A stretch of DNA of 64,000 nt, taken from Pristiophorus japonicus. Its lineage: Eukaryota. The notes beneath the pieces are model-generated. The model searched no databases and had not been told where the DNA came from. It worked only from the letters and a program-made list of their open reading frames with translations. The stretch lies in assembly GCF_044704955.1 (NCBI RefSeq), contig NW_027254113.1, positions 496,001 to 560,000 of the forward strand, in the 5' to 3' direction. Positions 7,923-63,520 of this stretch are shown piece by piece (within the stretch, counting starts at the first letter, position 1; each line of letters starts with the position of its first letter). The translations under genes were made by a program, and so were the position numbers.

Positions 7923-8457
7923 TGTATTGTATAGGGTTAATCACATAGGGTTAATTATGATATTTCGACATTTACAGTGTGTTTCTGCTTCATGCCTCGT
8001 GGAATGTTGTTGATGCAGAGAGAGAGAGAGAGAGGGACCTTGATGCGCACACCATCTTGTTTATGGGACAGTCGGCGCCTCGAGGTCTCATGCTTTGTGA
8101 AAGAACAGCTGGGGCCTTACTGATTAGGAGTTGGCCATAAGCCACATGCACCCATGTTTGTTCAATAGTATAAAGCAATGGAACTGTCCAGTAGCTCTTT
8201 TAACTTCAACTTGGACCATGATTCGCGAGCGGTGCCGGGACCCCCAAGGCTCCAGACTAGCCATCGTTGCGGAGTTCCCGACGGGCCGAAGGCTTTGAGC
8301 TTTGTTGCATCTTATCATACTTCTCTTTTCTTCATAAACTGTATTATGTTTCTTTTCCCTCAGTAAACGGTGTTTTATCTTTACTTCATTTGTCTTGCCT
8401 CTTATTTAACATTCATCCAGAACCCGAACCTGGGTCTATTATTATCGATCCAAAAAA
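7923..8457 (+). repeat. 5' LTR of class III ERV
   Basis: Starts TGTATTGTATAGGG; direct repeat of 13748-14274 at roughly 90% identity by eye. Confidence 0.92.
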
Positions 8458-8460
8458 TGT

Positions 8461-8478
8461 TGGCATCACGAACAGGAT
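8461..8478 (+). promoter_or_regulatory. Primer-binding site, tRNA-Ser(CGA)-like
   Basis: TGGCATCACGAACAGGAT, one mismatch to the recalled complement of the vertebrate tRNA-Ser(CGA) 3' end (TGGCGTCACGAACAGGAT). Confidence 0.75.
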
Positions 8479-8486
8479 CTGGTAAA

Positions 8487-10149: not shown

Positions 10150-13100
10150 GGCCACACATTCCGATTACAATACATTGGCGGGGTGGGGGCGAACATACAA
10201 AGAGATGTTGCTTTACTAGACACAGGGGCAGAAGTTACTATTATCCTTGGAAACCCTAGGAAACACACAGGGACCTGTATGATGATTAATGGGTTCGGGG
10301 ATGGGGGGCAGAAACGCCCGCTGTCCGAACAACTATCAGAATGGCGTTGGGAAATGGGCCTCCGCGCTGCGTAATGGTCTTAATATCGGCAGTAAAGGAA
10401 CATATTATTGGGATGGACCTTTTAAAGGGAACCACACACGACATCTCGTTCGGGCGATTCTCATTCGGGATATGGGCGATCATTGAGATTGCAGAGGAAG
10501 CAAAGTGGGAACCAGTGGTAATACCACGGCCATTGCGTATAGTGACTATGAAACAGTACCAAATACCTGGGGGACACAAAGAAATAGGGGAAACCATACA
10601 AGGGCTCTTGGAGGCGGGAATCATTAGACATGTTTGGCGTGTGCAGAAACCCGAAAAAAGTTGGAGGATGACTGTGGATTACCGACAACTGAACAAATGT
10701 GACCCTCCCCTGGCAACCGCTGTCCCAGATGTCGTAACTATAACAGAGCGGCTGTCTCAAAAAGGTGCGGAGTGGTATGCGGTAACAGACCTGGCCAATG
10801 CCAGTTTCGCCATTCTAATAGCGGAAGAATCACAGCACCAGTTTGCACTCACTTGGGAAGGGAGGCAATACACGTTTAAACGCCTACCTCAAGGTTACCT
10901 ACATAGCCCTACCCTATGCCATGGATTGGTGGCCCGGGACCTGGACATGTGCACGTTGGCTCCTAATATCTCACTGGCACACTATATCGATGATGTACTA
11001 ATAAGGGGTCCCACCGAGGCTGTGGTGTCAGAAGCCCTAGCTACTTTAGTCCAACACATGCGAGATCTGGGCTTGGAGATAAATCCGAAGAAGGTGTAGG
11101 GCCCTAGCCAGATTGTCCAGTTTCTGGGGATCCAATGGACTCGCGGTGAGCGCATCATCCCCGAGCCTGTGAGGAATAAAATTAAAGAAATGGCCACCTC
11201 CACGAATAAAACTGAGACACAACGGTTCGTGGGACTATTGGGTTACTGGAGGAGACACATACCTCACCTCACGTTGCTATTAAAATCGTTGTATGCCGCA
11301 ACTCGAAAAAAGGCCCACTTCGAGTGGGGAAAGGAACAACAGGTGGCTTTTGATGCAGCCAAACAAGCCGTAGCTCAAGCTTTACCCCAAGCCCTGCAAG
11401 TGCCTGGACAGCCTTTTGAGCTACAGGTATCCGTTACCAATGATACTGCAGTATGAAGTTTGTGGCAGGCTCAACATGGCACTCGTATATCGTTAGGGTA
11501 ATAGTCTAGAAAATTGATAGATGCTGCTGCTCGTTACACTGCATTTGAGAAACAATTATTAGCATGTTATTGGGCCCTAACAGAAACAGAAGGACAGACA
11601 GGAGACAGCAATGTTATTTTAAGACCAGACCTACCCATATTACCCTGGGTTCTCTCAGAAAATGAGACACACAAGGTCGGGCGAGTGCAGCAAAGCTCCA
11701 TAGTGCGCTCGAAATGGTATATCGCAGACAGAGCAAGTAAAGGGAAAGAAGGAATCACCCGACTACATGAGCATGTGGCTGAATACCCACAAACAGCTGA
11801 GAGTGAACTTACGCAGTCGTCTGTCAGTTTAACCAAAGAGTCACCGATCCCCTGGGGCGTGTCTTTTGAACAGTTAACACCCGAAGAACGTAGCCATGCC
11901 TGGTTCACAGGTGGCTCAGCGGTCTGGCGAAATGGCCTTCGGTGATGGCGAGCCGCTGCCTTCAATACAAAAAAACAGACAATTGTGCATGATGAGGGCG
12001 CGGGAGGCTCCAGCCAGCAAGCAGAACTAGCAGCTGTAGTCCCTGCGCTAGAAGAGGAACAGCAACAAGTACACATATATACTGACTCATGGGCAGTAGC
12101 CAATGGCATGGCGGGCTGAATGCGAAACTGGCATGAACATAACTGGCAAATAACTGGGAAAGACTTGTGGGGAAAGTACCTATGGGAACAAATATGTTCC
12201 AAAGCCCAGAAGATGAAAATAACTGTATATCATGTGGACACTCACATGAAAAACACTTCAAAGACCTCTGAATATAATAACACAGTTGATAATATAGCCC
12301 GGGTACGGGCTGTAAAAGAGGCGGAAGAGGAAGAATATGGCATAGGCAAGTGGGTCCACCACAAATCTGGACATGTGGGCATTCAGGGTACGATACAGTG
12401 GGCACGAAATGGGGGGTTACATTTGACTACGGACGGTGTTAATCAGATCATAAACACCTGTGAAATTTGTCAAAAGGTGAAGCATTTCCCCTACAACGAC
12501 AATTAAGAGAGGGTCTCAACCAGCAGAAACATGGCAAGTTGATTATGTAGGACCTTTACCATTGCAACAACGGTTCCAATATTTGCTCACTGTTGTTGAT
12601 ACCTATTCTACACTTTTGATCGCTTATCCAGTGACTAAAGCGAATCAACCAAGTACGATTAAAGGACTGGAGAATTTAATCACATACTACGGTGAACCAG
12701 CAGAAGTACAGTCCGATAATGGGTCGCACTTCACAGGTCAAACAGTGCAACAGTGGGCGGTAGATAACGAGATCTATTGGATGTTTCACATACCTTACTA
12801 TCCTCAAGCTGCAGGTTTAATGGAACGCATGAATGGATTACTTAAACAACAGATTAAAATATTAACTCCCACTAACACATTGCAAGGGTGGTTAAAGATC
12901 GTCCCACAAGCAGTGCGCAATCTGAATCACCGACCATTGTGGGGGGGGAAACTCCCATAAGCCACATGTTAGGCAAAGTTAGTGTCCCTACTATTGAAAA
13001 AGAAAATCAGACTCAGGACACAGTTTGTGAAGGAGGAAAAGTGTGGGTGCAGTACCCCCAGAAACGCTTACAAGCAGGGGAAAAGTTAGTGAAAGGAGAA

Positions 13101-21390: not shown

Positions 21391-21626
21391 TAAATGAAGG
21401 AGAAAAGTTCCAAAAAAGGAACAGTTAGTAACAGTACAACAATTAGTCTCCTCTTATATTGGAGAATTCAAGGAATCGACACACTGTGTGTTGGAACCAA
21501 AGCTGATTTATTTGTCAGATATCCAGAACATTAAATCCAGCCCAGTTACAGGGGAAACACAGCCCGACTGTCAGAATGAACACGATTCAGTCCTGATGTG
21601 ATTCACAGCAGAATCCAACCCTGCAG

Positions 21627-22644
21627 TCACTTGTGAACTCGCAGGTTTCTCAGCAGGTTGTATGGGGCAGTGAATCCCTTCCAACAGATGGAACAGGTGA
21701 ATGGCCTCTCCCCAGTGCGAACCCGCTGGTGTGTCAGCAGGTTGGATTTCTGAGTGAATCGCTTCCCACACTCTGAGCAAGTGAACGGCCTCTCCCCAGT
21801 GTGAACTCGCTGGTGTGTCAGCAGGTTGTATGAGGCAGTAAATCGCTTCCCACAGACGGAGCAGGTGAACGGCCTCTCCCCAGTATGAGTGCATTCGTGT
21901 TTCCTCAGATCATTTCTGCTTTTAAAGCTCTTCTCACAGTCAGAACATTTAAACGGTTTCTTATTGGTGTGAACAAGTAGGTGTGCCAGTAGGTTGGATG
22001 AACAAGTGAATCCCTTCCCACACACGGACACAGGTGAATGGCCATTCCCCAGTGTGAACTGGTTGGTGTGCCAGTAGGCTGGATGAATCACTAAATCCCT
22101 TCCCACACATGGAGCAGATGAACGGCCTCTCCCCGGTATGTATTCGCTGGTGTCTCAGCAGGTGGGATGGCCGAGTGAATCCTTTCCCATACTCTGAACA
22201 GGTGAACAGCCTCTCCCCAGTGTGAATGCGCTTGTGAATTTCCAGCTCAGAACGGGTAACTGAATCCCTTCCCACAGTCTCCACATTCCCACGATTTCTC
22301 CATGCTGCTGGTATCACTCCAGATTGGAAGCCTCGCCCACACACAATACGTTTACAAATTCTCTGCGCTGTGAATGGTGCGATGTTTTTTCAGGCTGTGT
22401 AACTGGTTAAAGCTCTTTCCAAAGGCAGTGCCATGGAACACTCTCACTCGGCTGTGTGTGTCTCAGTGCTTTTGCAGTCACACTGATGTTTGGAATATTT
22501 GCCTGCAGGCAGAAGAGACAAACATTTCTCCTTCCACATTCAAAGGCCAATGATATTCATGTTGCGGTGGATCAAGTGACTCTGTGAAATCTTGGTGATG
22601 TTTGGTTCCAGTTTCCCATCTGCAAATCTTCCCCTTCTAATCCC
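21627..22644 (-). pseudogene. C2H2 zinc-finger cassette 1, frameshifted
   Basis: Acceptor ttttcAG; [12 protein letters not shown] then about 8 fingers with HTGERPF linkers ending RVHK*; frameshifts near 22255 and 22030. Confidence 0.88.
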
Positions 22645-31345: not shown

Positions 31346-31542
31346 GTTGGTGGGGAAAACTGGGAATGGAGGATAAAATGTCTTGAGACGTGCGATGTGT
31401 TTGGATTTCAGCAGAAGGAGGAGGCAGCGATTTACAGCCTTGGAGGAACAAGAGAGGAAAAAATGTTCCTTAATAACTAGAATTTACTGTTCTGAATTTT
31501 TTTGTGTACTTATGGTGATGAGATCTGTAAACTCCTTTTACA

Positions 31543-32130
<588 letters not shown>

Positions 32131-34339
32131 TTTCCACTGCTGAACTTAGCATGTGCCCCATAGCATCTCTCTCACCTTCGATGTGTGAATAGAGCATCAT
32201 GGCTGCAAACCTGGTTTTAATTTAAATTTGAATCCACTCAGGAAAGGTATTTGACAAAAGATGAACAAGTAGACCGATCGCATCAATTAATTGGCAAAGC
32301 TTTAGATTCACCAAAATGAACAAGTAAACACATCAGAGCCCAATAGTCCAGCTCTGTATTCACAGGAGAATGTCTGTTATCTAACTGATCGCGTGGACAA
32401 ATATAGAAAGACCATAAGTCCAAGAACCTGTAGAATCTGTTGTAAATATCTTTCAAATCCTGACTGGTACAATCTCTCTGTTTCCTTTCAATTGAAATGA
32501 CTGTAAGATGAGAGGGGTTTAAGAGGAGTGGTCAGTGAGGGTGGAGAATAAGGGTGAAAGGAGTTGGGACGAAGATGGTTGGAGACAGAGGTGCAAGAGG
32601 AGCTGGGATGCGAGGTTTGGTGAATAGTAGTGTCTCAATTTCACTGAATAAAATATAATTACTGTCACCAATACGAGTTAAGTCAAAGCTTTCTGAACTT
32701 AGGTGTGAAAGGGCGAATTGGCACAGACCCAAAAACTCAACAAATTGACTTGACAGATAGTAATTAATCAATATTTTGTTCAGTGGAACTGGGGTCCGGA
32801 GATCTCTGGCCAACTCGTTATAGTCAGCCAGGCTATCAATCCAGGATGGAGAATTTCTGGGAGATGTAGGACTAATCTACCTGTAATTGAGCGATGGGTT
32901 TGCTAAGCATGGCTAACCTGACAGAGTGTGCCAGGAACAATGAACATGTGAAGCTGCTCGCTACCACTCACTTGACATCATTCCTTGCGAGACCAGAAGG
33001 TGACTCATACTGAAAAGCGGTCGATTGGGTTCAGGGTCAAATTGACGAGGGCAAGTCCCAATTTGACAAAGGGAAGCGTATATTGGTTTACACAACCCAC
33101 CTCTGTGCGCAGACTTGAGAAATTAACAGGTGAGGGAGGAGAAGCATAAGGAACAGACGAGACAGAGAGGGGAAAAGATCTATGGTGCAAGTTAACCCAG
33201 CCGAGAACTCAGCAATTGAAGGACAAAACAGAATTAGAGAATAAGTTGCTGAGATGACAATTTAAAAGATGAAAAAAGGAAACTTAAAGTTGAAACCAAC
33301 ACTGAAGCTGTCAGTGTCTGTGCCGAGAAAAATAAAGCACAAGATTACTGAGTGAAAGGAACCTGAAAGGATGCTGAAATTTAAGTTTGTGTGAATTATA
33401 TGAGTGGAAGTTTTCCTGACCATGAATGTTTAAGAATTTACAGTATTCCTTTTGTCTGAAAGACTGTCTTTGAAAAAAGCATCTGTTATGTTTGTTTTAG
33501 CTTCACCCACTTTTCTCTGCATGGAGCTAAAAGCCATTTAACCCTTTGTTGTCTTGGATATTGGGAGTTTTACGGAAGTGTGGATGTGTTGAGTATGTTC
33601 ATTTCAATTCAGATTATGGAACTAGTAGCAGTGGATCTTTGTGATTTACATTTTGAGGTTAAAGACGCTGCTGTGGATATATTTTGACTGGGGCAAGCTG
33701 TGCCACTCTGAAAGTCAGGCGAGTTTGTTTTACAAAAGATAAGCTTCAGCCTTGAAGTTACCGTTGCCATGTGCCTGATGCTTGTTTTGAAATTTCCAAA
33801 GCACTTTGTTTTTTCACATTTAAACAAATTAAATCAATGTTTGTCTACTCATATTCAGTATTTTTAGTCATTTGGAAAAGCACCTGAAGGTAGCAATGAT
33901 GTAATTTACTGTGTTCTGTAAGCATGTGCTATTTTGTTTCATTTTATCTGTTCTGTATTGTTTAGTTAATAATATATTGGTCTGAATTAAATTGGAGCTA
34001 TTTAAATTAACTTAGCTATGTTTTATTCAAGGTTAATAATGATAGCTTTACTAATGATTCTGCTGTTTTCACGGATTTTTAATTATTAAGGAAGTTATGA
34101 AGTTGCAAACTTAAAAAAAAGAACCAAATCATGATTTAAAACTAACTTCTGTTTGTTCACTTGAGTAGTAACGAATTCAGTCTTCTGTTTATAATCAATT
34201 TATTCTTTACCATCAGCATGAAAAGCAATTTACAAGTGGAATATAGTCACAGATGGAGCATGTGTAACCAGGCACGGGTATCTCCATGCTAACTAACAAA
34301 GGAAAAAGCTTACATTTATAGACTGTTTTCTTAGCAAAA

Positions 34340-34662
34340 TGGAGCCGGCATTGCCTAATATGGTAGTCTCTGGCTACTGCATAGTCCAGAGACACAAGTT
34401 TACATCAGCAACACATTTAGAAGCATTGCGACCTGGCCACGGTGATCATAAACCACTAGTTCTGGACTTTTCTTATCCTAACAATATTTCTAATCCATTC
34501 TATTATGAATATCGAAGCCTGGTTGGTCACAAAACAACAGCTGTTGCTAAGTGAAATCTGTCTCTCTCTCCCTAATAATACGAACCACATTTATCCCACT
34601 ATCAAATGAATTAAACATAAACCCCTTTCAGAAGCTGAATTAACCAGGGTCCACGTGTCAAC
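34340..34662 (-). repeat. Diverged direct repeat, copy 1 (LTR-like; possibly extends to 34132)
   Basis: Roughly 75% match by eye to 48612-48955; followed on the minus strand by TATAAA (near 34318) and AATAAA (34199-34204). Confidence 0.7.
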
Positions 34663-34769
34663 CTGTCCCAGAGGTTTTTTTATGGGTTACATTACCTGTT
34701 GAAAAAGTGTTTTATATCCTTCTTTGTCTTTACTAATCCTGGTTTCCTCTCAGCGTCCTTCCCTTTCCT

Positions 34770-36275
34770 TATATTTTCAATGTCTCTTATTGACTTCCTT
34801 ACAGCATAATGCAATGACCAGAATCCCTGAAGCTATTATCCGTGCTATCACCAATCCCAGCTGGAACAATCTAATTAGATACTACTTTCCTCCATTCCTG
34901 ATTCTCATGTCTCGGGATTGCCCGTTCTGTCTCTCTATTCCTCTATATGATTTGCACTGTTTGTTTCTGGGATGTCCTAATTCGCTTAATTATGAGCTTT
35001 AAAGCCAGAAACAGGGATAATATCGTGTCCTATGTGTGGAATGACTTGAATGGCTTCATCCTCCAGAGGCAGTCTTGTCTGCAGATAAGTTGTGTCATGA
35101 TGATGCACCAGAACCAACGTTTAGCACCGATACATGTGTTCCTCGGTGGAATCAAGCTAAAGTGATGTTCTAGTATGGGGCATCGGGTTGAACCCACAGT
35201 CATATACGTGACAGTAGTAGTCACACAATACTGTCCTTTTCCTTTATACACGGTATTAGTTTGGCCTTCGCCACATTTAAATTATTTCAATCTGGCATTC
35301 TGGAGATTCTTTGTTGAGGGTGAACCCACAAGCTGGAACATCTACAAACCAATGTTGTCCCTTTCAGAGTACAACACTGCATATCTGGTGCTATCCAAGT
35401 TCCTCCCCTCTCAATCAGATATCTTGGATATTCCTCATACTGTTTATGGATCGGACCTAACTCAGTCTTCCACCCTTGCAAACAGTTCTACCCTAGACAC
35501 CGGCCAAGGTTTCATTTCATTTCCATTTTTCCTCAGCAAAGGCAAGACCAATCCCACTGGTCTAATATCTTCACTTCTTTCTTCTTCCCTACGAGCCAAA
35601 ATCCCCATTCCTATTGTCGGCATATAATCAAAGCCTATGACTTGGTTCCCCTAAACCATTTTCTCAGTTGTTCTTCATGAATAAACAAAGGGATTTGATT
35701 ACTCTCTCTCTTGTCCAGTTCCTACTGTATCACATTCATCATAAATGTCACAGAGGCTACACATGATACCTCCAGTAAGCCACATCCTGTTCCCATTCAC
35801 TTTCTATATCTATTCTGTTTACTCCTGCTAACCTTGCTGTAGCTCCTATTCTGAGCTATCCTGTCAGCTCTCACTTTCCTTCTGATTTGAACTGATTCTC
35901 CTTGTATTCTCCATCTTCCTCATCCCTTGGTTCCTGTTTTCTATTCTTTACTAACACATCCTTTACTAATTCTCTTCCCATTTTGTCTATTAATTGTGAA
36001 TATCTCCCTTCACATAATCTAGTTGATAGATTCAAGCTCATGTTTAAAACTTTTGATTTCAATGAACAATTTAAAAACACATATTGTTATATAATACATT
36101 TCCTGATTCATTTACTTCTAGTCCATTAAAATGTGGGTTCTTTTACTGGATGGGACAGGTCGAGTTCTTTTTGCGAGGTGAGATGTCATTTTATTTAAAT
36201 CTCACATATGATGATCACTATCAACGTTTGTACTTGGCAAACCAATAGTTAACATTACTGATCAACATACGACAT
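34770..36275 (-). pseudogene. Decayed viral fusion-glycoprotein-like (env) gene B
   Basis: Joined minus frames give NGLEVNESGNV..FLNCSLK, RRKVR, IGATARLAGVNRIDIE, PRYLIERGGTWIAPDMQCC...VCRC, VYKGKGQYCVTT...RCPI, and C-terminal TM LFQLGLVIARIIASGILVIALCC. Confidence 0.65.
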
Positions 36276-36449
36276 TTCTTACTTTAAAATAACCTGCCGT
36301 CATTACCTTTTAAGTTTGTATTGAAGTATTTTATAATGTTTTTGAATTACTTATTGTCCTGGAGTGATACTAACTCTTTAAGTGAACACTATTAATTTAG
36401 TGTTTGGGGTCAGGATGTGTCCCAACACACCTGGTTCAGGGGAGTCTTC

Positions 36450-37347
36450 CTGGTCTCACAATATTCCCAAGGAGCAGGCTTGAGGGTTCTTTCTCTATTA
36501 CCACCAAAATTATGCTTTTGCGGTTTATCACTGATTCCAAAACTAACCCTTTTGAGGTCCACTGTTTCCTACTGGAGATCGCCTCTCACTTGGATCCATG
36601 TTTTGTTATGGAGCTTGTAAGTTCTGGCCTCCTTATCTCCCACCTTCAGCTTGGAGCTGATCTGTACACAGCCATGGCCACCTTGTTCGGACAGAGCCAG
36701 GCTGATTTTTTCTGTTTTTAGTCTCTATACAAGCTTTCTTTGTTCAGTATTAGTGGAGGCCTTGAAAATGACGACCATTCCAGCTGTAAGGAAATCCTAA
36801 TTTGGTCAGCATTCTCGCTCCTGTTAATTCTAATGCCTCTGACAGGTAGCAGTGTGTTTAACTCCATCCTGATTATTTCAACGTCGGTTTCTCTATGGAG
36901 AATGTGTCACGGCTGTGATGGTTTAAAAAGTTGTCTCACTCTCCTGAGCCAAATTAGCCATTTCATGTTGTGCTGTTGTCGATAACTGAGCATGCCTGAG
37001 ACTCGTTCACACACACACGCAGTGGTATCCCAATATCATGCCACATGTGACATCTGTTCCAAGCCATTTGAGATGATCTTATCAAAAGATCGTGGGGTGT
37101 CTGAAGATCTTTGCTCATCTCCCTCTGCATGGTCCCGATGTCTCGGATAGTGGCCAGACGATCAAATTCAGTTTTCTTATTGTTCAGTGTAGGCAATGAC
37201 ACAAACATCTCAGAGAAATCTTAGCAATTTCCTACACTTCCCTGACTTTAACAAGAATTTACATTAACACCAGATTGTACCCAGGAGATTTTTGACAATT
37301 CGCCCAGGAACAATGAGTGAAGAAACATTTCTATTTGGAGATGTAAC
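36450..37347 (-). pseudogene. Decayed fusion-glycoprotein-like gene A, 3' part (split by provirus)
   Basis: K*KCFF (decayed basic site), FVSLPTL...RLATIRDIG...LQTP, CHMWHDIG.YHC...QAC. Confidence 0.45.
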
Positions 37348-37907
37348 TGTGGATATCTGAACGGAATATATGGAATTAAGGACAGTAAAGTAAACGGGAT
37401 ATATGAAAATGTATAAGCCATGGAAGAATAGCTGGGAGAATGTCAGACTGCACATAGTGCAACATCAGCATAGTTAACAGTCTTTCCCAAGGTTTCAAGT
37501 CACTAATCCTGCCAATAACATAAATTGTAACATGAAATGAATATACGGATAAATCTGCAGTATTGCAAGGTCTCAGTTAGTAGTCACACCACTAGATTGA
37601 AACATTCAGAGGCAATGCTTGAGCTTTCGTAAAGACATCTCATATAGATTGACTAATGAGTGGCTGAGTTAGAATGTCAATCTAATTGTATTTTGTTATC
37701 TGATTTCAAAACTGTATAACTGTTGTCGCTTTACGATGTAACTTCACCTATCCATAGGGAGTGTGTACGCTCTATCCAGAGGTTATATCTTCTGTCTGAT
37801 AGGTCCTGCCGGCCGGTAAAATAAAGACTGCTTTGTTCAAAACACAAGAGGTATTCGACTCAGTAATTTTATGGAACCAGATTGAGAGAAAATAATCTAC
37901 ATTTACA
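37348..37907 (+). repeat. 5' LTR
   Basis: TG...CA termini; AATAAA near 37820. Confidence 0.95.
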
Positions 37908-37909
37908 TT

Positions 37910-37927
37910 TGGTGTCAGAAGTGGGAT
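37910..37927 (+). promoter_or_regulatory. Primer-binding site, tRNA-Leu
   Basis: TGGTGTCAGAAGTGGGAT. Confidence 0.85.
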
Positions 37928-39195
37928 CTCAACGGACAACTGCCGAAAACTTGCGAATTAAGAGCTAGACTAACCTTGGACGAGACAGGGGGAGAGTGGC
38001 CACTGGAGTGATTATGATTTCAATACTGTTCCAGTTTCCCCCGGTTTCAAAAGTCTGAGAAAAGTTTAGCCACTTGCTGGTTCTCGGGTAGTGTCTGAAC
38101 GAGATTCATAACAATTTGGCGAATAGCTTCTAAATTTAGAAATAAGTGTTCAATTCAGGTACGACATCGACCTTGTATATCACTTGGTCCGTCTAGGCAC
38201 TGATTGAATTTAAACTGCGCAGTGACGCGAAAGGATAGGGAAATTTGGAGACTAAAAGAAATTAAATAAGGCTCATAAGAAATCAAATTTAGAAAATTAG
38301 GCTCACAGGGAATAAAATGGGGAATTAAATAGAGGATAGGTGTTCAATTCAGGTACGACGTCGACCTTGTATAGCACTTGGCCCGTCTAGGCACTGATTG
38401 AATTTAAATCCCGCAGCAACTCGGAAGGTAGGGCCGACACAAACGCGCAGTGGCGCTGACGCGCAAACGATGTGAGACGTGCAGCGGCGCGAGCGTGCGG
38501 CCGAGAGGTGGAGGGCCGACGCGAATGCGCAGCGGCGCTGACGCGCAACTATGCAAGATGCGCAGCGGCGCGAGCGTGCAGCCGAGTAAAGGAGCGCTGA
38601 CGCAGACGCACGGCAGCGTGAACACGTGGTGACGTGGGACGTGCGGCAGCACGCGCCTGAGTAAACGTGGGCCTACGCGAATGCGCAGCAACGCGAACCG
38701 CGAAAGTCAGTGCTAGTGTCAGTAAATCTATGTCAGTATTAGAGTCTTTGTTTATCTTAATTATTCTAATCGCGCGGCGATGCAAACAACGGGGCGACGC
38801 GGGAGTCTCAAGTATCGCGCGACAACGTGAACCGCGGGGCGATGCGGATCAGTGTTAGATTTAGTAAAGTCTTTGTTTAGTGTTTTAAATCGCGCGGCGA
38901 CGCGAACCGCGGGGCGACGCGGATCAATGTTAGAGTCTTTGTTTATTTTAAGTATTCTAATTGCGTGGCGACGCGAACTGCGGGGCGACGCGGGAGTCTT
39001 AAGTGTTCTAAATTGCGCGGCGACGCGAACCGCGGGGCGACACGGATCAGTGTTAGCATTAGTAAAGTCTGTTTATTTGGAGTTGGTTAAAAGTCAGTGT
39101 TAGTTTCCGTAAAGTCTGTGTTTATTTTAAGTTTGTTTAAATTGCACGACGACACAAACGCGTAACGACACTGTAATACGAGGGGCAGCGTGAAA

Positions 39196-41126
39196 ATGGG
39201 TAATCAGTTGGATAAAACAATGGATGCGGATAGTCTGCTACAAAAGTTACGTGAGGAATTCCCTGAAAGAGCTGAAGACTTTAGAAAATTATCAGGAGCC
39301 CTGAAAAAATTATTAGGAGATGACCAGTGGCCTCTAGGTGGCACTAGAAGCGTAGAGGTAGCAAAAAAAGCACAGGGATTAATTTGGATAAGGGGACGAG
39401 GAAAAGGGGACAAAAATTTAATTGCAACATGACGACACTATTGTCAAAAATTGAAAGATGCATCACTTCTGTCAAGTTGGCAAATAAATGCTATTAAATT
39501 GTGACTCTCATTGACAGAGGGAACACATGTTAAAACTGTAGACGTCTTAAAAAAAGAATGTGTACACGAGAAACTTGCTAAGAGAACCTCTGGGACCTCT
39601 GAGAAAGGTATTCACCGACTACGTAGTAAAATGGCTGGCTTTGTGTTAACCGAGGCTGATGATGAAATTGATGAGTGGCAACTGACTCAGCGCCCAACGG
39701 CGCCTCCCGCACCCCCTGGCCCCTTGCTCCAGTCCTCTTCCCAACACCCTCCACCTAACACTCCGGCGAAAAGAGTTAAAAATAACCCCATACCACCAAA
39801 GCAACAAACCCAAACTGGGTCCTCATCCTCTGATAGTGATTCAGATCCCCAGTTCACAAGCAATATAGCCGAAAGGACCAGATCTCACACTCGAAAGGGC
39901 AGAACTATATCTCGATATCACAAACAGTCCTGTAAATCTTCTAGTCAATCTACCAGTCCAAGTTGTGAAAGACATAGCAAACACCCCTGCCGATCGAGAC
40001 GCAGAACTGTCAAGCAGTCAGACAGCTCTGAAACATCCTCCGACCTAGAAATTTCCAAGATCCCAAAGTCCCGACACCAATTCCCTGTCAGACCGATGCC
40101 AAATCCTGATGCACAACAAGCTGCAGACCACCCCACTATAGATATCTATGTGCCTTGGAAACCAAACGAAATTATGGCCCTTATGGCCAGCATACCAGAT
40201 CGGAAAAAAGAACCTATCAAATTTATAGATTATCTTCGAACAACTATTTCAGTTTATAATGCAGAATCAAGGGACCTGTGGGCCTTAGTAAAGCAAACCT
40301 TTAGCCAAACTGAACACACCCGATTTCTAACTCACCTAGGACTTGCTACTCATGATGCATTGTTGATTGCTCACCCTAACGATATCCAGGATCGCCTAAA
40401 CGTTATCTTCAATGCTCTCACCACGACCCTTCAGAAGCCCATCAGTATGGCCACAGTATTAGAAACTAAACCCAAGCGTGAAGAAACTCCCGATGAATTT
40501 ATCGAAAGATTTATTGAAATGTATGGGAGTCAATCAGGAGATAATGCCTTCAGTGCAGGAGAGGATTCTCCTCAATTTTGCACTATCCTACTTCAGTGCT
40601 TGCCCTATTCGATTGCTCACGCTATTCGGACAAATAATATGAATTGGGCAGATAACAATAAAGCCCAGATGGAAAGGGCAGTTAGATATTATTGGCAGGA
40701 AAAGAAAGGGGAGGGGGCAGGTGCGCCCCCAACCCGAGTCAAGACTGAATACGTGACTAGAAAGGAAGAGCCGCCTCAGGTGGAAGGTCCAAAACCCGAC
40801 CCAAGGGGATACCAGATGGAACCGCAGTATTGCGTGCCTGGTTGGGTGGATAAACAGGGATACGGTTATATCGAACACCCAAATGGCCCGGGCCCTGCTA
40901 ATTACGACCGCCCTACTGTCCCCGGCCTGGTATGGGAAGAGGTCGGGGCTTGGAAAGAAGAGATGGATGTTTTTATTGTGGGCAGGAAGGACATTGGATT
41001 AAAAATTGCCCCTACCGTCAGCGTGGAAAAGGAAGAGGAGGGAAAGGAGGGGGGCAAGGGGGGAGAGGAGAATTTTACACTAACTTCTCCCAGAACAACA
41101 CCTTTTGTCACTTGTCCCCTGATTGA
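39196..41126 (+). pseudogene. gag: gag
   Basis: MGNQ myristoylation start; WPLGGT; PTAP; YVPW; major homology region ETPDEFIERF; knuckle CFYCGQEGHWIKNC; stops and a frameshift. Confidence 0.9.
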
Positions 41127-44100
41127 CCACACAGCTTGATTGTACAGGGATCCTCCCCGGAGGACGAACCAATGATATTGTTAAAAATTCTGAATGAGTG
41201 GCAACCCTTTTTGATAGATACGGGAGCCTTCATGTCTTCTGTACAATCAAAGCTTAAACTCCCTGCCTCTACTGAAACACAGGAACTTTCATGATTCCTG
41301 GGACAATTCTCGACATTCCCGGTGTCAGAACCAGTTAAAGTGGGTTACCAGGAAGAATCGGTAGAACATCGATTTGTCATCACTACCAATCTGGACTGTA
41401 ACTTGATGGCTAGAGACCTCCTCTGCAAATTCCAGTTGCATTTGGAGTGTGGAGATGATGGGATTATTGTAAAACAGGGAACCCTTAAGCAGCAGTGTTA
41501 TACCACTAGAACCCCTCAGTGGTGGTCTCTGGACCTGCCGCAGGCACCCTATCACATAACCCTAGCAGACTATCCCAGCAGAAAGAATCAGGACGTGCAG
41601 AACTTTTATCAGGATCACGAAGGGGAAGTGAAGGGAATTCTATTAAGGGCTAGAGTGACTGGACCGGAAGGAGAGGCAGATTTTGTGGAAATGGATAAGA
41701 ATCTGTGGAAACAGCCCCTAACAATGGCACCGCATATTGCTCGTGAAGTATTAGCCCCTCACCATGCTAAAGATTTGGGAGTTATGGTACGCAAGGCCAT
41801 AGATGAGGCTGACCCTACCTGCCGGGATGTGCAAATCGTAAAGCATGGCCAAACAGTCCAATTTCATGGGGACGCCGAGAAGGTCTTAACGACTCTACAG
41901 CATCATACTGGCTCGGACATACCTGACTATGGGGATCCTCATGTGTGGGCAGAGGACCCTTCCCATGTGGGTTATACTCCCATTGATCCGATTGAGATCC
42001 CAGTGAAGGGCAATGTTGACTGGCCCTCTATCCGACAGTACCCACTGAAATCACAGGCAATACCGAGTATCCACCGATTGATTAAGGGGCTAATGGAACA
42101 GGGGATTTTGGTTCGAAGCCAGTCCCCGTGTAATACTCCTATACTGGCAGTGCCTAAGCCAGGCAGACCAAACGAATACCGTTTGGTCCAAGACCTGCGA
42201 GCTATCAATGCTATCGTCCAGCCCCTGCATGCTCTGGATCCCAACCCAGCACAGATACTGTCTTTAATCCCAGCAGACGCCAAGATCTTCACAATAATAG
42301 ACCTCCAACACGCCTTCTTTGCTTTACTGCTAGCCCAGGCGAGTCAGTACCTATTTGCCTTCACTTACCAGGACAGCAATATACCTGGACGAGACTTCCC
42401 CAAGGGTTCATCCACTCCCCAACCTTATTCTCAAGGTGCCTGCAGAAACAGTTACAATCTCTCATGCTGACTAAGGGATCTCCTTTAATTCAGTATGTGG
42501 ACGATTTACTGGTATCCCGCGTAGATGAACCAAGTAATAGAGAGGATGCTAATCAGTTATTGAATTACTTGTCCTAGTATCTCCGTCAAAGTCAAAATTG
42601 GCCAGTCTCAAGTAAAATTTCTTGGGATCATTTTAACAGGCACACACCGAGCCTTGGAGGCATGTCGAATCAAACCCATCTGCCAGTTTCCAGTCCCTAG
42701 CACGGCTAGACAAATGCGGCAGTGGTTGGGGATGATAAATTACTGTAGATCCTGGATTCCTAATGCTGCCCTGATGACCAAACAGCTCACACCGTACACT
42801 ACCAAGGAAGGCAACTTTAAATTAGAAACCACAGACATCCAAGCCTTTAAGGAACTAAAAACAGCCCTGCTGCAAACTCCGGCTTTGGGATGGCCCCTCT
42901 ACGACCATCCCTTTCAATTGTATTGCACAATCATTAAAGATTGTGCTACTGCTGTTTTAACTCAGAAACACGGGGATAAACATAGGCCTGTTGCTTACTA
43001 CTCTTCTAAAACAGATCCCGTTGCCTTCGGACACCCCGTATGTACTCAAATATTAACTGCTATCTACAATAGCCTACAATCTGCCGCCAACCTTACCCTT
43101 CAGCAGGATAGTGTTGTATCTACTTCTCAGTCCGTAGCTGCCCTTTTGGGCCAACTGCAAACTCAACATCTTACCATGGCTAGGCAAAGTAGATATGAGA
43201 TCTACCTACTAAATAATCCAAGGCTGACCTTTCGGTACTGTACTGCCATCAATCCGGCTTGTTTTCTTATCGAGCCACCCAAGATGAGGAAGAACCCAGT
43301 CATGATTGTTTATCCTTAATTCAGGAGGCCACATCAGTCAGGGAGGATTTAGTTGATGTACCAATGGAGGATCCAGACTGTATTATGTATGTAGACGGAA
43401 GTTCTTTCATTGACCCAGAAGGCAGACGAAATTCTGGATACGCCATAGTAAACCAGGAGAATCAGATCGTGGAATCTGCCGCCTTTGAGACCGCCTATTC
43501 CGCCCAACAAGCTGAAGTATTTGCCCTTACCAGAGCCTGTATCCTGGCTAAAGACCTCAAGGTTAATATCTATACCGACTCTGGATATGCCTTTGGCATA
43601 GATCATGATTTCGGACAATTATGGAAAAATAGGGGATTCCTAACCTCACAGGGGAGTGGGATATCTCATAAACAGTTAGTATCTGATTTGTTGCAAGCCC
43701 TCATGTTCCCCAAACACATTGCCATTGTCAAATGTACCGCCCACACTACCGGAAAATCTCTGGTTGATGTAGGGAATCGTTGTGCTGACCAAGAGGCCAA
43801 ACAGGCCTCTCGTGGACAACGGATGGTAGTGCCCAGAATGATGAGTCAGACTAAAAATCCTGCGAAGGATAAGTTAGCCTCGGAAAAACCAATGCCAACC
43901 ATCCAAGATGTTATAAAAGCACAGGAGGACGCTCCTGAAAAAGATAAACTGTTATGGAAAGATTATGGATGTACCTATGACAATGTCTCTAAACTCTGGA
44001 CCACTCCCACGGAACAGACTTGCATGTCTGACGAGTTGGCCTCATGGGTTATAGAATGTCTGCATTTTGCTACTCATTGTGGAGCAAGGGCAACAAGTGA

Positions 44101-45031
44101 TACGCTTTTGGCTACTTGGTGGCACCCAAGACTTCAGGCGTTGGCGCAAAAAACTAGTAGTCGTTGCCTTCTTTGCCAACAGCATAATCCAGGGAAGGGA
44201 GTCCCCTGTGATTGGGGTAAGACGCCCCTACCAGAAGGTCCCGTTGAGACCTTGCAGTTGGACTACATTGAGTTGCAAAGGGTTCAGTGTTATAAATATG
44301 TGTTAGTAATAGTGGATGTATTCAGCAAATGGATTGAAGCTTATCCTACCCTAGACAATAAAGCTCAAACTGTTGTTAAAGTGTTAATGAGGGAAATTGT
44401 TCCTAGATATGGTATCCCTGCTCGACTGAGTTCCGATAATGGCCCTCACTTTATTGGCCAAGTTAACAAAGAATTCTGCTCCCAGATGCACATCAACCAG
44501 CAGCTGCATTGCGCCTACCGACCCCAAGCTGCGGGACTGGTTGAACGTGCTAATCAAACTCTGAAAACCAAACTTGCAAAACTAGTAGCATCAACTGGAC
44601 TAAACTGGCTTAAACTCCTTCCCATAGCCCTATTCCAGATACGCACTACCCCAACTGGTAAAACTAGGCTGACCCCCGCTGAAGTCATTTATGGCAAACC
44701 CCTAAGGACCCCTTGGAATCAGAATGTCCCCTCCACTGTCCAATTCCACCACATGACTGAGGAGATGACCACATACATTCTTTCCTTAACTCAGGCTCTG
44801 CGAGAAGCCCACAACCAGGTTCGAGGGGCTCACCTTGACCTCCCAGTTTTACCCGAATCATCCCTCGTGGTTCCAGGGAAGTATGTTCTGATTAAGAAAT
44901 GGGTTCGAAAAGGATTGCAGCCGCGATGGGAGGGCCCTTTTCAGGTGTTACTCACTACCCCTACTGCAGCTAAGGTAGAAGGGAAAAGTGCCTGGGTTCA
45001 CCTGCACCACTGCAAGCTCATCACCCTTTAA
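41127..45031 (+). pseudogene. pol: pro-(2H phosphoesterase)-RT-RH-IN
   Basis: LIDTGA; YRLVQDLRAIN; YVDD at 42494; YVDGSS; SAQQAE; HHCC; SSDNG; GPF C-terminal motif; several frameshifts. Confidence 0.93.
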
Positions 45032-45242
45032 ACAAATTTTGATGGTTAGTCTAATTCCTGTTTCTGTTCCAGATCTCCTCTTCCCCATAGCTGAACAAGG
45101 CAGTTGAAGGAGGACCAGTTTGAACTTTTACCCGTAAGACAGCCAAATACACTGATGGAGACCTGAAGAAGGGAAACGGGAAAACAGAACTCTTTTAATC
45201 AGCAAAATAATTGGACTATTTATCAGAATCCTGAGCCATAAG

Positions 45243-46680
45243 ATGAGACTGTGTCTGTATGCCACTGTCTGCATAATAGTGTTGATATATGAGTTTTGGC
45301 GCATGGGAAGGAAGACAAAGGCGAGAGCTCCATGTCAACACCTTTTTATATATGCCTTACGTTTATGCGGAAAAAGGGCACTTCACTAGATGCTGGGTGT
45401 GTCACATATCCCTATACATTCCAAAGGGGGAATTCCTTTGTGCACCGTTCCACTGACCCTAACTGAGACTGTCAGATGGATTCAAAGCCAAACTATAATA
45501 AAAGGAGGGGCCAATACAAGTACAAATGATGAAAGGCGGGTCAAAAGAGGGATCACGGAGACCAGGAGGAGTAACATACCGTTACCACCTGAACAAACAC
45601 GGGGAGGTCACCAAGTGGGAGGGTATTGGAGATCCCATTAGTCAGACGTTCCAGGGATGGCACCAACCAACCTACAACCGGGAAAAGGAACCCCCATTCA
45701 TAGCTCTGATCAATATCTCAGGGATTGGGAGGCCAACAGGGGGCATATGTCTAATTCGAAATGATACCAGTACCAGGGGACATGTCGTAGGGTATAGCAA
45801 TTGCCCACACAGTCTCAACCTCACCACAGGTGCACGGGTTACCATTCACTCTCATTATCCAAATAACACAGACGGGAGGTTGTGGGCCCAGTCTTGGGAC
45901 CCGGAGACAATATATCAGAAAGCAGCCTTTAACGGCACGTATTTCGTGTGCAGTCATAAGGCATATCCTTGGTTGCCCAGGCGATGGACAGGGTCCTGCT
46001 ATATGGGATATGTGGTGCCATTTAAGCGACAAGTACGTACCTTGGCGGAAGTACATGCCTCCATACGAGTTAAGCGAGCCATCACCCCCGCCGACAAGTT
46101 CTTTGGGGTCCTGGTGTTCCCAGTGGGGATAAAACGTCTCATGGATGAAGTACAGAACTTAGAAACGATATTGGAACAGGTAGCTAACCGCACTGCTGAG
46201 ACTCTGGAGGGCATCACAGCTGAAATGGTAGCAATAAGGACCGGAGCATTACAAAACCGAATGGCCCTCGATTACCTGTTAGCTGAGAAAGGGGGAACGT
46301 GTGCCCTGATAGGATCTGAATGTTGCACTTACATTCCTGATAGTTCAGAAAACATAACCCACCTTGCCGATCACATAAGGAGGGAGGTGAAGAAGTTATC
46401 CACACCAGCAAAAGAACTTAGCAGGTTTGATTGGTTTCTGGGTGGGTCTTGGAGATCCTATCTAATACATGGGGCAATTGTTCTCATCGTAATAATAATT
46501 ACCTACTGTTTGATTGTTGGTTGCCTTAACCTCTGCTGTAAAGTAATGATGGCAAGGTTAGCAAACCCTCTTGTGGTCAAGGGTTCCCGGGTTATGATCC
46601 AACAAATTAGAGAACTACTCAACAATAATATGATTCTGGAAATGGAGTGTGAACGGATGAATGCAATACTCTCAGAATGA
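45243..46680 (+). pseudogene. env: gamma-type env; SU frameshifted, TM open
   Basis: Acceptor at 45072; signal peptide; CWVC; furin RVKR; immunosuppressive domain LQNRMALDYLLA; CX6CC (CALIGSECC); TM span. Confidence 0.92.
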
Positions 46681-46715
46681 TCCTACATGTTATCATAGAA
46701 TGATAAAAGGAGGGA

Positions 46716-47274
46716 TGTGGATATCTGAACGGAATATATGGAATTAAGGACAGTAAAGTAAACGGGATATATGAAAATGTATAAGCCATGGTAGAATAGC
46801 TGGGAGAATGTCAGACTGCACATAGTGCAACATCAGCATAGTTAACAGTCTTTCCCAAGGTTTCAAGTCACTAATCCTGCCAATAACATAAATTGTAACA
46901 TGAAATGAATATACGGATAAATCTGCAGTATTGCAAGTCTCAGTTAGTAGTCACACCACTAGATTGAAACATTCAGAGGCAATGCTTGAGCTTTCGTAAA
47001 AATATCTCATATAGATTGACTAATGAGTGGCTGAGTTAGAATGTCAATCTAATTGTATTTTGTTATCTGATTTCAAAACTGTATAACTGTTGTCGCTTTA
47101 CGATGTAACTTCACCTATCCGTAGGGAGTGTGTACGCTCTATCCAGAGGGTATATCTTCTGTCTGATAGGTCTTGCCGGCCAGTAAAATAAAGACTGCTT
47201 TGTTCAAAGCACAAGAGGTATTCGACTCAGTAATTTTACTGAACCAGATTGAGAGAAAAGAATCTACATTTACA
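46716..47274 (+). repeat. 3' LTR
   Basis: About 98% identical to 37348-37907. Confidence 0.95.
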
Positions 47275-47278
47275 TAAC

Positions 47279-47557
47279 TTTCCTGTTTTCTTCTTATATC
47301 CTCACTTATTTCCTCTCATTACATTTTATACAGTGTTCACCATTTCATTCCTGAGCCCGGGGGAACTTTACTGTCTAATACAATATTATCATACTGTCTT
47401 TAAACATCGATCAAACATTCCCACTTGGTTCAAGTTTTGAACCAGTTTCTTTGTTTAATTTTATTTAACTGAACCTCTTCTTGGACCTTTTATTCTCCAA
47501 AAGATGCCAGAGAGCAATTCAGTCGACAACAAGAAGGATGTTAGTTACCTTTAGCAT
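47279..47557 (-). pseudogene. Fusion-glycoprotein-like gene A, 5' part
   Basis: MLKVTNILLVV signal-like start; TGSKLEPSGNV / FDRCLK parallels gene B; reads across the TSD into 37347. Confidence 0.4.
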
Positions 47558-47696
47558 AACAGTCGCCCCCAAAAACTTATTTCTGAATACATAGTTTGGA
47601 CAGAACCACAGAGACAGGACTTTTTCAAAAATAAAACATAATTATCGCAATTTTCAGTAAATTTTCCTTCCCATGGGTTTGACCAGCGAAGCTTAG

Positions 47697-47729
<33 letters not shown>

Positions 47730-47849
47730 CAGTTTTAATTTCACAAACAAATTATGCCCAGACTGTCATTTTACAAAGAAGACAAAAGTAACAATTGCGT
47801 TTGGATGCAGGTCATTTATCTTCCCCTTCGAGCAGTGTGACTTGGACAA

Positions 47850-48430
47850 TAGGATTACATCGGATATACGTCACAGAAACAGGCCATTCGGCCCAACCAG
47901 TCCATGCCGGCGTTTATGCTCCACTCGAGCCTCCTCCCTTCTTTCCTCATCTAACTATATCCACATAACCCTCGATTCCCTTCTCCCTCATATACTTGTC
48001 TAGCCCCCCCCTTAAATGCATCGATACTATTCGCTTCAACCACTCCCTGTGGCAGCGAGTTGCACATTCTCACCACTCTCCGGGTAGAGGTTTCTTCTGA
48101 ATTCCCTATTTGATTTCTTGGTGACTATCTTATGTTGATGGCCTCTAATTATGCTGGTCCCCACAAGTGGAAACACTGTATCTACTCTATCAAAACCTTT
48201 CATCATTTTATAGACATTATGTCACCCCTCAGCCTTCTTTTTTCCAAGAGAAAAGAGACCTGGCCTGTCCATCCTTTCCCGATAGGTACACGCTCGCCTT
48301 TCTGGTATCATCCTTGTAAATCTTCTCTGCACCCTCTCCAGTGCCTCCATACCCTTTTTATAATATGGTGAGCAGAATTGCACACACAAAGTCTAACCAA
48401 GGTTCGATACAAGTTTAGCATAACTTAACC
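47850..48430 (-). mobile_element. CR1 3' fragment
   Basis: CR1 RT C-terminus and 3' UTR on the minus strand. Confidence 0.8.
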
Positions 48431-48611
48431 ACTTTTCCATTCTATAATAATTCAATTCTATAACAATCGATCCCAATAATTTAACTCAATACTTTAAATT
48501 CTTAAGTCCAACTTTGTCAGCATGCTGCGACATTCGATGTCTGCAGATAACTGGAGATAATTTTGTTTTAACTGCTGGATCTTTTGCTATGCCATTTACC
48601 TCTTATCCAAC

Positions 48612-48955
48612 TGGAACTGGCATTGCCTAATATGGTCGTCTTTGGCTACGGCATAGTCCAGAGACACAAGTCTGCATTTTCTTCAACATACATCAACAAT
48701 GTTAGAAGCACGTAAAACACTGGTCTTCCTGTGGCAAGCACAAACCACTAGTCTCTGAAATTTTCTTATTCTAACATAATATTTCTAATCTAAACATTCT
48801 ATGATGAAAATATCCACGGCCAGTTGGTTGCAAACACCAACTGTTGCTCAGTGAAATCTTTCTCTAATGATAACAACCACATTTTCCCCGATATGGAATG
48901 AACTAAACATGAACACCTTTCAGAAGCTGAATTAACCTAGTTTCCTATGCCAACA
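48612..48955 (-). repeat. Diverged direct repeat, copy 2 (LTR-like)
   Basis: Shares GGCATTGCCTAATATGGT, CATAGTCCAGAGACACAAGT and CTTTCAGAAGCTGAATTAACC with 34340-34662; on the minus strand starts TGTT after GAGGGG. Confidence 0.7.
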
Positions 48956-49720
48956 CCCCTCACATCTTCCATTCACTTCAACTGAAAGGAAAATGCCAGA
49001 TTTTATCAGTCGGGATTTGAAAGATATTTACAACAGATGCTAGATATTCTTAGAGTTAGCATTGTTCTCTATTCTGTCTACTCGAGGAGTTTGATAACAG
49101 ACTTTCTCCTTTGAATGTAGAGCTGGAATATTGGGCCGGGATGTATTTACTTGGAAATCTTGTTGACTCTAAACCGTTGCCAATTATTTGATGTGATCTG
49201 TATTTCCTTAAATACATTTCCTGAATGGATTCAAATTTAAATTGAACCCAGGTTTGCAGGCGTGATGCTCCATTCACACATCGAAGGTGAGAGAGATGCT
49301 GTGGGGCACACTAAGTCCAGTATCTGAAAGTGATTCACAGACTGGGTTTAGTGTTTAGTGATCCCAGGCATGTTACCGACACCTTCCCACAATACCAAGG
49401 CTAGGAGAGGCACTCTGGAAGGTAAGGGGAACTGGCATTTGTCCACGAGAGTAACCGAAGGTATGAGAACTGAAATAATCCAGAGTTAGAAAGGAGAAAA
49501 GGCCCCAAAATGGTGCAGTCAGAAACAGGACATCAATTAGTCTCCTCTTATCTTGGAACATTAAATATCGACACACTGTTATTGAAACATCAAATATTAA
49601 TATTCCAGCCCAGTTATAGGGGTTATTATCATCAGAAACAAACTTCAACTGTCAGAATGGACACGATTCAGTCAGGATGTGATTAAGAGCAGCAATGATA
49701 GCAGAATCCAACAACTGCAG

Positions 49721-50410
49721 TCACTTGTGAACTCGCTGGTGTGTCAGCAGGCGGGATGACACAGTGAATCCCTTCCCACACTCAGAGCAGGTGAACGGCC
49801 TCTCCCCAGTGTGAACACGCTGGTGTGCCAGCAGGTCGGATGACTGAGTGAATCCTTTTCCACATTCAGAGCAGGTGAACGGCCTCTCCCCAGTGTGAAC
49901 AAGCTGGTGTTTCACCAGGCTGGATGACTGAGTGAATCGCTTCCCACACACGGGGCAGGTGAACTGCCTCTCCCCAGTGTGAATGTGTTGATGAACTTGC
50001 AGTGCAGACGGGTAGCTGAATCCCTTCCCACAGTCCCCACATTTCCACGGTTTCTCCGTGGTGCGGGTGTGCTTCCGTCTCTCCAGGTTGGATGATCAGT
50101 TGAAGTCTCCTCCACACACACAACACGTTTACAGTTTCTCCCCCACTGTGAATGGTGCGATGGTTTTTCAGGCTGTGTAACTGGTTAAATCTCTTTCCAC
50201 AATCAGTGCACTGATACACTCTCACTCGGGTGTGTGTGTCTCAGTGCTTTTTCAGTCACACTGATGTTTGTAATCTTTCCCCACAGACAGAATAAACAAA
50301 CATTTCTCCTTCCACATTCAAAGGCCGATGATATTCAAGTCCTGATGAATCGAGTGATTCTATCAGATCTTGTCGTGAGGTTTAGTTTGAGTTTCCCTCC
50401 TTCTAACACC
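49721..50410 (-). pseudogene. C2H2 zinc-finger cassette 3
   Basis: Four clean terminal fingers ending RVHK*, but the MEKPW start reads ACG and there is an upstream in-frame TGA. Confidence 0.85.
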
Positions 50411-50539
50411 CTGCAAAAGGAGTTTACAAAAGTCGTCACTGTAAGTCAGGATCGAAATTCAGAAGAGACAATTCTAGTTTCTATGGAACATTCTTTCATT
50501 CTGGTGTGTGGTTTTAAGTATTGACTTCATAAAAATAAT

Positions 50540-62465: not shown

Positions 62466-63455
<990 letters not shown>

Positions 63456-63520
63456 CTGCAGGGTTTGGATTCTGCTGTTATTGCTGCTGTTAATCACATC
63501 CAGGACTGAACCATGTTCAT

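Follow-up and report, generated by a model that had tools for sequence, protein, structure and literature searches.

Remnants of two tandem, predicted F-type envelope genes in a multi-copy long terminal repeat element of the shark Pristiophorus japonicus

A stretch of 64,000 nt from the genome of Pristiophorus japonicus (NCBI RefSeq assembly GCF_044704955.1, contig NW_027254113.1, forward-strand positions 496,001-560,000; hereafter the window, whose own numbering is used throughout) contains a decayed element bounded by long terminal repeat (LTR)-like sequences, in which two broken genes, A and B, appear to descend from envelope (env) genes of the fusion glycoprotein (F) type. When a young provirus and a CR1 fragment are subtracted from positions 34129-48955, approximately 4.3 kb remain, which read on the minus strand as repeat, gene A, gene B and repeat (Table 1). 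A recount after excision of these two insertions agrees with the size given in a first-pass annotation made from the letters of the window alone. That annotation had placed the left end of the element at 34132; the element stands, and loose ends of contigs put the border itself rather at ~34129. Both genes are dead at this locus, as had been stated, the longest stop-free stretch being 85 codons.

A phmmer search with one gene B frame against 1.84 billion representative sequences returned a sole match, GCC29952.1 of Chiloscyllium punctatum (hereafter P0008; 739 aa; E 6.9e-14), to which individual pieces of the gene are 28-51% identical in tblastn. A frameshift-aware alignment, with an X placed at each break, extended over residues 198-691 of P0008 with 165 identities in 422 columns (39%), 8 frameshifts and 5 stops; its score was 553, the best of 200 shuffles being 52. 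RKVR at 35880 aligns with the furin-site position of the shark protein, and IGATARLAGVNRIDIE, right behind this basic site, aligns with its fusion-peptide position; the TM (transmembrane segment) lies at 34860. The order first proposed for gene B, namely basic site, IGATARLAGVNRIDIE, Cys core and C-terminal TM, is hence recovered by alignment to a homologue. The features of a lokiretrovirus-type Env (RXKR site, fusion peptide, coiled coil and TM) are found in gene B as well as in P0008 and its two relatives described below. Conversely, the immunosuppressive domain (ISD) and the CX6CC motif are absent from the three minus-strand frames of A and B, in agreement with the earlier reading, while the same scan recovers both in the env of the young provirus, which serves as a positive control. 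Pfam searches of seven single A/B frames gave only DUF2321 at E 0.17, and a word-index search with the gene B frame P0001 gave 0 of 2195 candidates. The comparisons strongly suggest that gene B is the remnant of an F-type, and not a gamma-type, envelope gene.

P0008 has relatives in Scyliorhinus torazame (XP_072333160.1) and Heterodontus francisci (XP_067889054.1; P0009 and P0010). These are intact proteins of 739-754 aa, with a signal peptide, an Ig-like (immunoglobulin-like) domain and an F-like env region. Across bamboo shark, catshark and horn shark, which represent three orders, they are 85-88% identical overall and 90-94% in the core, with one record per species in the clusters. The Ig-like label derives from the source name, 'Ig-like domain-containing', and from weak antibody matches, the proteins being otherwise unnamed: five of the nine weak matches of P0008 in a PDB sequence search were antibody heavy chains, at residues 68-145 (E 0.05-0.85). 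AlphaFold rendered the N-terminal domain alone mostly as strands (pLDDT 44.9); for A3 it gave a pLDDT of 27.8 and no independent support for an F-type reading. That reading of P0008 is based on architecture together with an atlas of language-model features, whose thresholds are uncalibrated for partial proteins such as the residues 180-720 used here. The top match in the atlas (0.95, 219/256 shared) was a cluster with PF00523 on 21%, the third (0.94) was Fusion glycoprotein F0 with PF00523 on 88% of members, and the 10 best family-bearing matches all fell in one family or clan. P0008-P0010 lack both ISD and CX6CC. Viral and metagenome collections yielded neither a relative nor an LTR motif, and the Ig-like part of the shark protein was not found within the window (6 tests, best 2/60). 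On sequence grounds, the three proteins are likely products of an old captured F-type env gene; a literature search that covered few subscription papers, with Repbase outside its scope, found no captured F-type env in sharks.

Gene A was approached using the shark proteins as a bridge. Two blocks in its rear part align with residues 449-535 (37247-36989) and 587-656 (36696-36485) of the reference. For each of them, 0/500 shuffles were as good (with a small positive bias), as were 0/304 and 0/212 tiles of real DNA, and a TM-like stretch at 36248 lies, by hydrophobicity, where the reference places its TM. The LP..RL.TI.DIG block, which the first-pass annotation had singled out, does fall inside the significant segment of gene A; taken alone it is equalled in 65/300 shuffles. 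An N-terminal signature, G..l..SGNV, which was held to be shared by the two genes, did not survive testing: 268/1000 shuffles were as good, the best match lay away from SGNV, and with the shark profile the figure was 249-282/300. When gene A was compared with gene B directly, 38/300 shuffles were as good; BLASTP and hhalign comparisons of the gene A frame with B frames or A3 gave no match, and a word-index search with residues 85-310 of P0006, a gene A sequence, gave 0/663. The ordered blocks suggest that the rear half of gene A is a distant F-type paralogue.

From the signal-like stretch in the presumed front part of gene A to the position of residue 449 there are ~129 codons, where the reference has ~250 residues, and 47279-47850 contains no basic site. 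Gene A as it stands therefore has no room for a cleavage site, a fusion peptide and a first heptad, and the set of features typical of lokiretrovirus-type Env is lacking from its front half. The homology of gene B begins at most 15 codons from the TM of gene A, which leaves no space for a separate gene B signal peptide. Overlapping frames and a single precursor are both possible for the two genes; the latter would need a second signal, of which none is visible, since one TM would leave B on the wrong side of the membrane.

The two parts of gene A are separated by the young provirus. Its reported insertion with a TAAC target-site duplication (TSD) proved correct: its LTRs are 97.9% alike over 561 nt, TAAC lies on both flanks (37344-47 and 47275-78), and its gag, pol and env open reading frames (ORFs) match Pfam RVT_1, RNase_H, rve, MLVIN_C and TLV_coat. 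The env is gamma-type, with both ISD and CX6CC. The provirus belongs to class I, with a TGG resembling a primer-binding site (PBS) directly after its 5' LTR and a pol spread across three frames. One contig of sequencing run X8 (n=1) passes from 37262-37347 directly into sequence from 47280 onward with no provirus between, so that the provirus was inserted later, into a gene A until then continuous. It is present at very high depth in runs X1 and X2, and missing from the X8 copy. The CR1 fragment, too, is where a piece of this kind was claimed, and it sits 150 nt from the point at which the similarity between the two repeats ends.

The direct repeats 34329-34662 and 48601-48954 share 269 identities, with 56 mismatches and 39 gap columns (73.6% over 363 columns). 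The match, with 17% mismatch, is confined to the U3 part and ends 9 nt before the TATA box of the left LTR. The initial description of repeats matching over ~330 bp thus holds for direct repeats; a cognate LTR pair is not confirmed, given that only U3 matches and no TSD is seen. When the continuation of the right repeat (the next 140 nt, and the stretch past CR1) was compared with R-U5, 124/200, 121/200 and 92/200 shuffles scored as well; of the two full matching LTRs that mark a non-autonomous LTR element, only U3 matches here. The flanks of the old element differ at 4-5 nt and no TSD was found, which decay could conceal. No PBS-like TGG occurs at a definable LTR end, the 5' LTR end itself not being definable, and no run of 9 purines adjoins the 3' LTR as a polypurine tract (PPT). 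A purine-rich stretch before the right repeat was considered as a PPT and rejected, being host sequence common to 32130-32518. Positions 32130-32518 and 48955-49330, the regions downstream of two zinc-finger remnants, are 80% alike, and this host homology ends exactly at the TG of the right repeat, which hence marks an insertion point in host DNA. The continuation predicted by the host paralogue was searched for beyond the left end at 34129 and was not found there. From the shared repeat to the signal-like stretch of gene A there are 433 non-CR1 bases.

Table 1. Features of the old element and of the sequences inserted in it (window coordinates).
Feature	Positions	Strand	Remarks
3' LTR of old element	34129..34661	-	U3 ~34661-34330; TATAAA 34320; AATAAA 34204; end near 34129
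Gene B, broken F-type env (predicted)	34777..36175	-	basic site, fusion-peptide-like stretch, Cys core, second heptad, TM
Gene A, rear part	36190..37347	-	blocks 37247-36989 and 36696-36485; TM-like stretch 36248; putative distant F-type paralogue
Young gamma/epsilon-like provirus	37348..47274	+	antisense within gene A; TSD TAAC
Gene A, presumed front part	47279..47566	-	signal-peptide-like stretch 47566, hydrophobicity 1.69; candidate by position only
CR1/LINE fragment, 5'-truncated	~47850..48450 (borders approximate)	-	58-68% to other CR1-like pieces of the window; reverse transcriptase C-terminal text in translation
Right repeat	48601..48955	-	U3-like LTR part, same family; begins with TG at host junction

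Positions 32500-37400 were compared with the contigs of 4 of 12 sequencing runs (X1, X2, X8 and X9); X8 and X9 are two of the five runs in which the element has a small share. The family comparison covers the block formed by the rear of A, B and the LTR, and the contigs described individually come from a set of 32 out of 5695 pieces. Matching contigs numbered 2761 in X1, 2241 in X9, 514 in X2 and 9 in X8. By identity, those of X1 divide into 568 at 99% or more, 622 at 95-99%, 833 at 90-95% and 738 under 90%; among the matches listed, most of the long ones from X1 and X9 are 80-88% alike. Single records have a depth of 12-37 (up to 88 in X9), against a summed depth over the body of 2000-10800 in X1 and 250-10800 in X9, a sum that is not a copy number, given that repeats also make up the flanks (141-1719 in X1). 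In X9 the bins at 34140-34631 reach 3270-4715, against 790 in the outer bin and 247-1666 in most internal bins (excluding 36764-37255), and loose ends with mixed sequence occur at both LTR borders, where a short TG..CA inverted repeat is found in other copies. This pattern is typical of an LTR that also occurs as solo copies. In at least three organisms, the A-B-LTR block forms a multi-copy LTR repeat family. One X9 contig (n=1) covers 35928-36290 across the A/B border with its length unchanged, and two X2 contigs extend past 34329 with sequence resembling the right repeat. The first heptad of gene B is short by about 55-60 residues near 35770. An X8 contig spanning 35555-36037 (27 differences, no gap) has the same loss; because X9 contigs carry unaligned sequence at this point, the loss is likely not common to the whole family.

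Some irregularities of the family deserve separate mention. Contigs of X1 and X2 skip 35999-36212, a family deletion variant that removes the A/B border. The summed depth rises several-fold above the rest at 36764-37255 in X1 and X9, and at 35124-35451 in X1 only, which suggests separately amplified pieces or a short repeat within the genes. None of the listed runs that contain the element is given as RNA. In X2, X3 and X7, which are small and of unknown kind, the share of the element's words is 26-33%, similar to that in the large DNA runs; these three may represent RNA, or else DNA sequenced at low coverage, where repeats are the first to assemble, and they have no bearing on expression.

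In our view the locus is a dead member of a multi-copy LTR family, with tandem envelope genes, A then B, that are predicted to be of the F type (class I, as in paramyxoviruses such as measles virus), and it would derive from a shark retrovirus whose gag-pol was lost here (probability roughly 0.5). If one also counts a variant of this reading, with the right repeat inserted separately, descent from a gag-pol-A-B retrovirus that lost its 5' part becomes somewhat more likely than not. The source would be an infectious gag-pol-A-B retrovirus in the shark lineage. Gene B would have been its fusogen, with a furin-type cut, fusion peptide, heptads and TM, and gene A would go back to an ancient duplication of a gene of this kind. 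With ~129 codons in place of ~250 and no basic site, gene A was likely a non-fusing partner, serving in attachment or as a folding aid, and it would occupy the place of the Ig-like domain in the single-gene shark form. R-U5, the PBS and gag-pol would have been removed at the 5' end by a local deletion or recombination, which would also account for the missing TSD; CR1 and the young provirus would have been added later. We favor such local loss because two envelopes make most sense in a particle-making virus, and because local damage is visible at the 5' end. Carrying an envelope is worthwhile for an element that forms particles, and endogenous retroviruses (ERVs) that spread within a genome usually lose env, not gag-pol.

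Several observations weigh against this interpretation. In the contig comparison, which did not extend to 47279-48955, gag-pol was seen upstream of A in none of the copies. Neither was any gag or pol remnant, such as lies between the LTRs of lokiretroviruses, detected at the locus with the available queries, which were the distant ORFs of the young provirus only. Of 40 gag, pol and env comparisons one reached 0/30 (young env versus A/B, score 44.9), which we read as a TM match or chance. The 433 bases ahead of gene A approximate the length of R-U5 plus a short leader, as fits an element that never had gag-pol, and the two repeats, at 17% mismatch, differ no more than copies of the family do from one another (12-20%), so that they may be a cognate pair damaged later. 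For gene A, the choice of the two blocks followed inspection, the highest score free of such bias was 59.3 against 54.6 for the best of 210 unrelated tiles, the heptad-2/TM block alone was equalled in 148-220 of 1000 shuffles, and the front part (47279-47566) gave no significant alignment. As to the F-type assignment itself, PDB sequence searches returned no F protein, and Pfam hmmscan found no PF00523 in P0008 or in any frame of the window.

These observations give some room to a family that is env-only by nature, with the layout LTR, short leader, A, B and LTR, packaged and reverse-transcribed by a helper retrovirus that would receive the envelope in trans. The two repeats in the same orientation, their plausible age, the short distance to gene A with no trace of gag or pol, and the TG of the right repeat exactly at the host junction all agree with it, and the loki lineage offers a precedent for a single-gene non-autonomous LTR family in BHIKHARI, which has gag only (PMC12067270, which, like the other papers cited here, was available in part). 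However, R-U5 of both ends ought to match and does not, there is neither a TSD nor a PBS-like TGG at a definable LTR end, a second copy with the same layout was not seen, and the literature provided no env-only precedent. We regard it as possible but doubtful, and the env-only claim for the family is unproven. More specifically, it is unlikely that a shark LTR family carries just a two-part entry machine, made of the fusogen B and a fusion-dead duplicate A as its accompanying protein. Somewhat less likely again is that the right repeat comes from a sister subfamily, as a truncated LTR in its own right that happens to lie upstream, and that A-B-LTR is the 3' end of a different provirus. The match restricted to U3, the lack of a TSD and the left flank without the host paralogue's continuation would all follow, and the two X2 contigs that continue past 34329 hint that the form may exist elsewhere. 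Against this, those contigs may simply represent the orthologous right repeat, the repeat is on the same strand and within 433 non-CR1 bases of gene A with a divergence that fits the age of the family, and two independent insertions so close together demand coincidence or a hotspot.

Two other alternatives concern the genes themselves. Gene A might be an unrelated accessory or leader sequence with a chance similarity, as its lack of a Pfam, hhalign or homologue match, the 38/300 of its comparison with B and a best unbiased score near background would allow. Two independent, ordered blocks that exceed all shuffles and real tiles, with a TM-like stretch as far behind them as one would expect, make this improbable. 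The first-pass annotation had also entertained a formerly co-opted env tandem, that is, a host pair A and B that later died. The conservation of an intact relative of B in three shark orders lends it some appeal. Yet B is just 39% identical to that relative, whose N-terminal domain it does not have, the block exists in many copies that are 80-88% alike and has an LTR directly behind B, and both genes are heavily frameshifted, B itself with 8 frameshifts and 5 stops; co-option of this tandem is thus very improbable. What stands of the first interpretation is the presence of non-gamma, F-type env remnants in an LTR element without detected gag or pol. The family of shark LTR elements with twin envelope genes of the F type is in all likelihood real, and co-option, while wrong for this locus, is likely right for the intact relative.

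The preferred reading, a retrovirus that carried gag-pol and both envelope genes, can be set beside several known systems. With lokiretroviruses the element shares, in gene B, the F-like env layout within an LTR element and the lack of ISD and CX6CC. Lokiretroviruses are defined by their reverse transcriptase (RT) and have one env behind gag-pol, whereas here there are two putative env paralogues, no RT and no direct PF00523 match; 'lokiretrovirus-type' therefore denotes a resemblance of env alone, there being no RT at the locus by which to place the element. In its mode of action the envelope would be comparable to the F-type Env of a lokiretrovirus or an errantivirus. Gene B and the proteins GCC29952.1, XP_072333160.1 and XP_067889054.1 have the same motif order over the 422 aligned columns; unlike gene B, the latter are intact, conserved across three orders and preceded by an N-terminal domain of ~170 residues that is absent from the window. 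XTERV1 of Xenopus, which the literature confirms only as epsilon-like, may have two env genes; if so, it likewise has a tandem env in one provirus, but of the gamma type and on an intact gag-pol backbone. Lokiretrovirus Env is described as F-like, with a basic cleavage site, fusion peptide, coiled coil and TM and without ISD/CX6CC (PMC7947760). The hosts given in the available text of that paper, its supplement aside, are lampreys, ray-finned and lobe-finned fish, amphibians and reptiles, with no mention of sharks. BHIKHARI of zebrafish (Bik-1 and Bik-2) exemplifies loki-related non-autonomous LTR families that keep one structural gene; it differs from the old element in keeping gag rather than env and in its full matched LTRs (PMC12067270). 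The feature clusters nearest to the intact relative are those of paramyxovirus and pneumovirus F, baculovirus F and the F-type Env of errantiviruses (PF00523, PF12259; PMC13524379). Each is a single trimeric fusogen without a tandem paralogue, and we found no match to them at the sequence level. The E2/E1 and Gn/Gc pairs of class II systems, in which the coding sequence of a partner glycoprotein directly precedes that of the fusogen, frequently as part of a common precursor, offer an analogy only: they belong to a different fold class, and the review consulted does not derive their partner from the fusogen, whereas here it would be a class I paralogue (PMC8706100). The comparison also took in PMC9040795, PMC11089739, PMC8278194, PMC10536682, PMC12386078 and the bioRxiv preprints 2023.10.26.564176 and 2021.11.23.469661, likewise available in part.

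F-type envelopes connect retroviruses with negative-strand RNA viruses, and env surveys based on motifs overlook them; a survey of 40 chondrichthyan genomes, for instance, demanded the CKS17/ISD motif (PMC12813294). The same literature search as above found neither a tandem F-type env nor an env-only LTR family. If the present assignments are right, two F paralogues, one of them apparently incapable of fusion, would represent a class I fusogen that gained a partner through duplication. An env-only mobile family, if true, would invert the usual rule by which ERVs shed env. A family carrying the two-part entry machine alone would spread by lending its envelope to env-less helper retroviruses, as an envelope satellite, and its A/B pair would be a class I counterpart of E2/E1 and Gn/Gc, possibly made as one precursor. 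The intact protein of three shark orders is, for its part, a direct candidate for an old captured F-type fusogen. Sharks have several forms of live birth.

The host setting of the element is formed by two decayed C2H2 zinc-finger paralogues, 78-80% alike and arranged tail to tail, at 31448-32518 and 48955-50505. The CR1 pieces, these C2H2 remnants and the closest proteins, which are from sharks, are in keeping with the DNA of a cartilaginous fish. The old element lies in the region downstream of the minus-strand remnant and in the same orientation as that remnant. More zinc-finger remnants lie within the window at ~21400-22300 and ~62500-63500.

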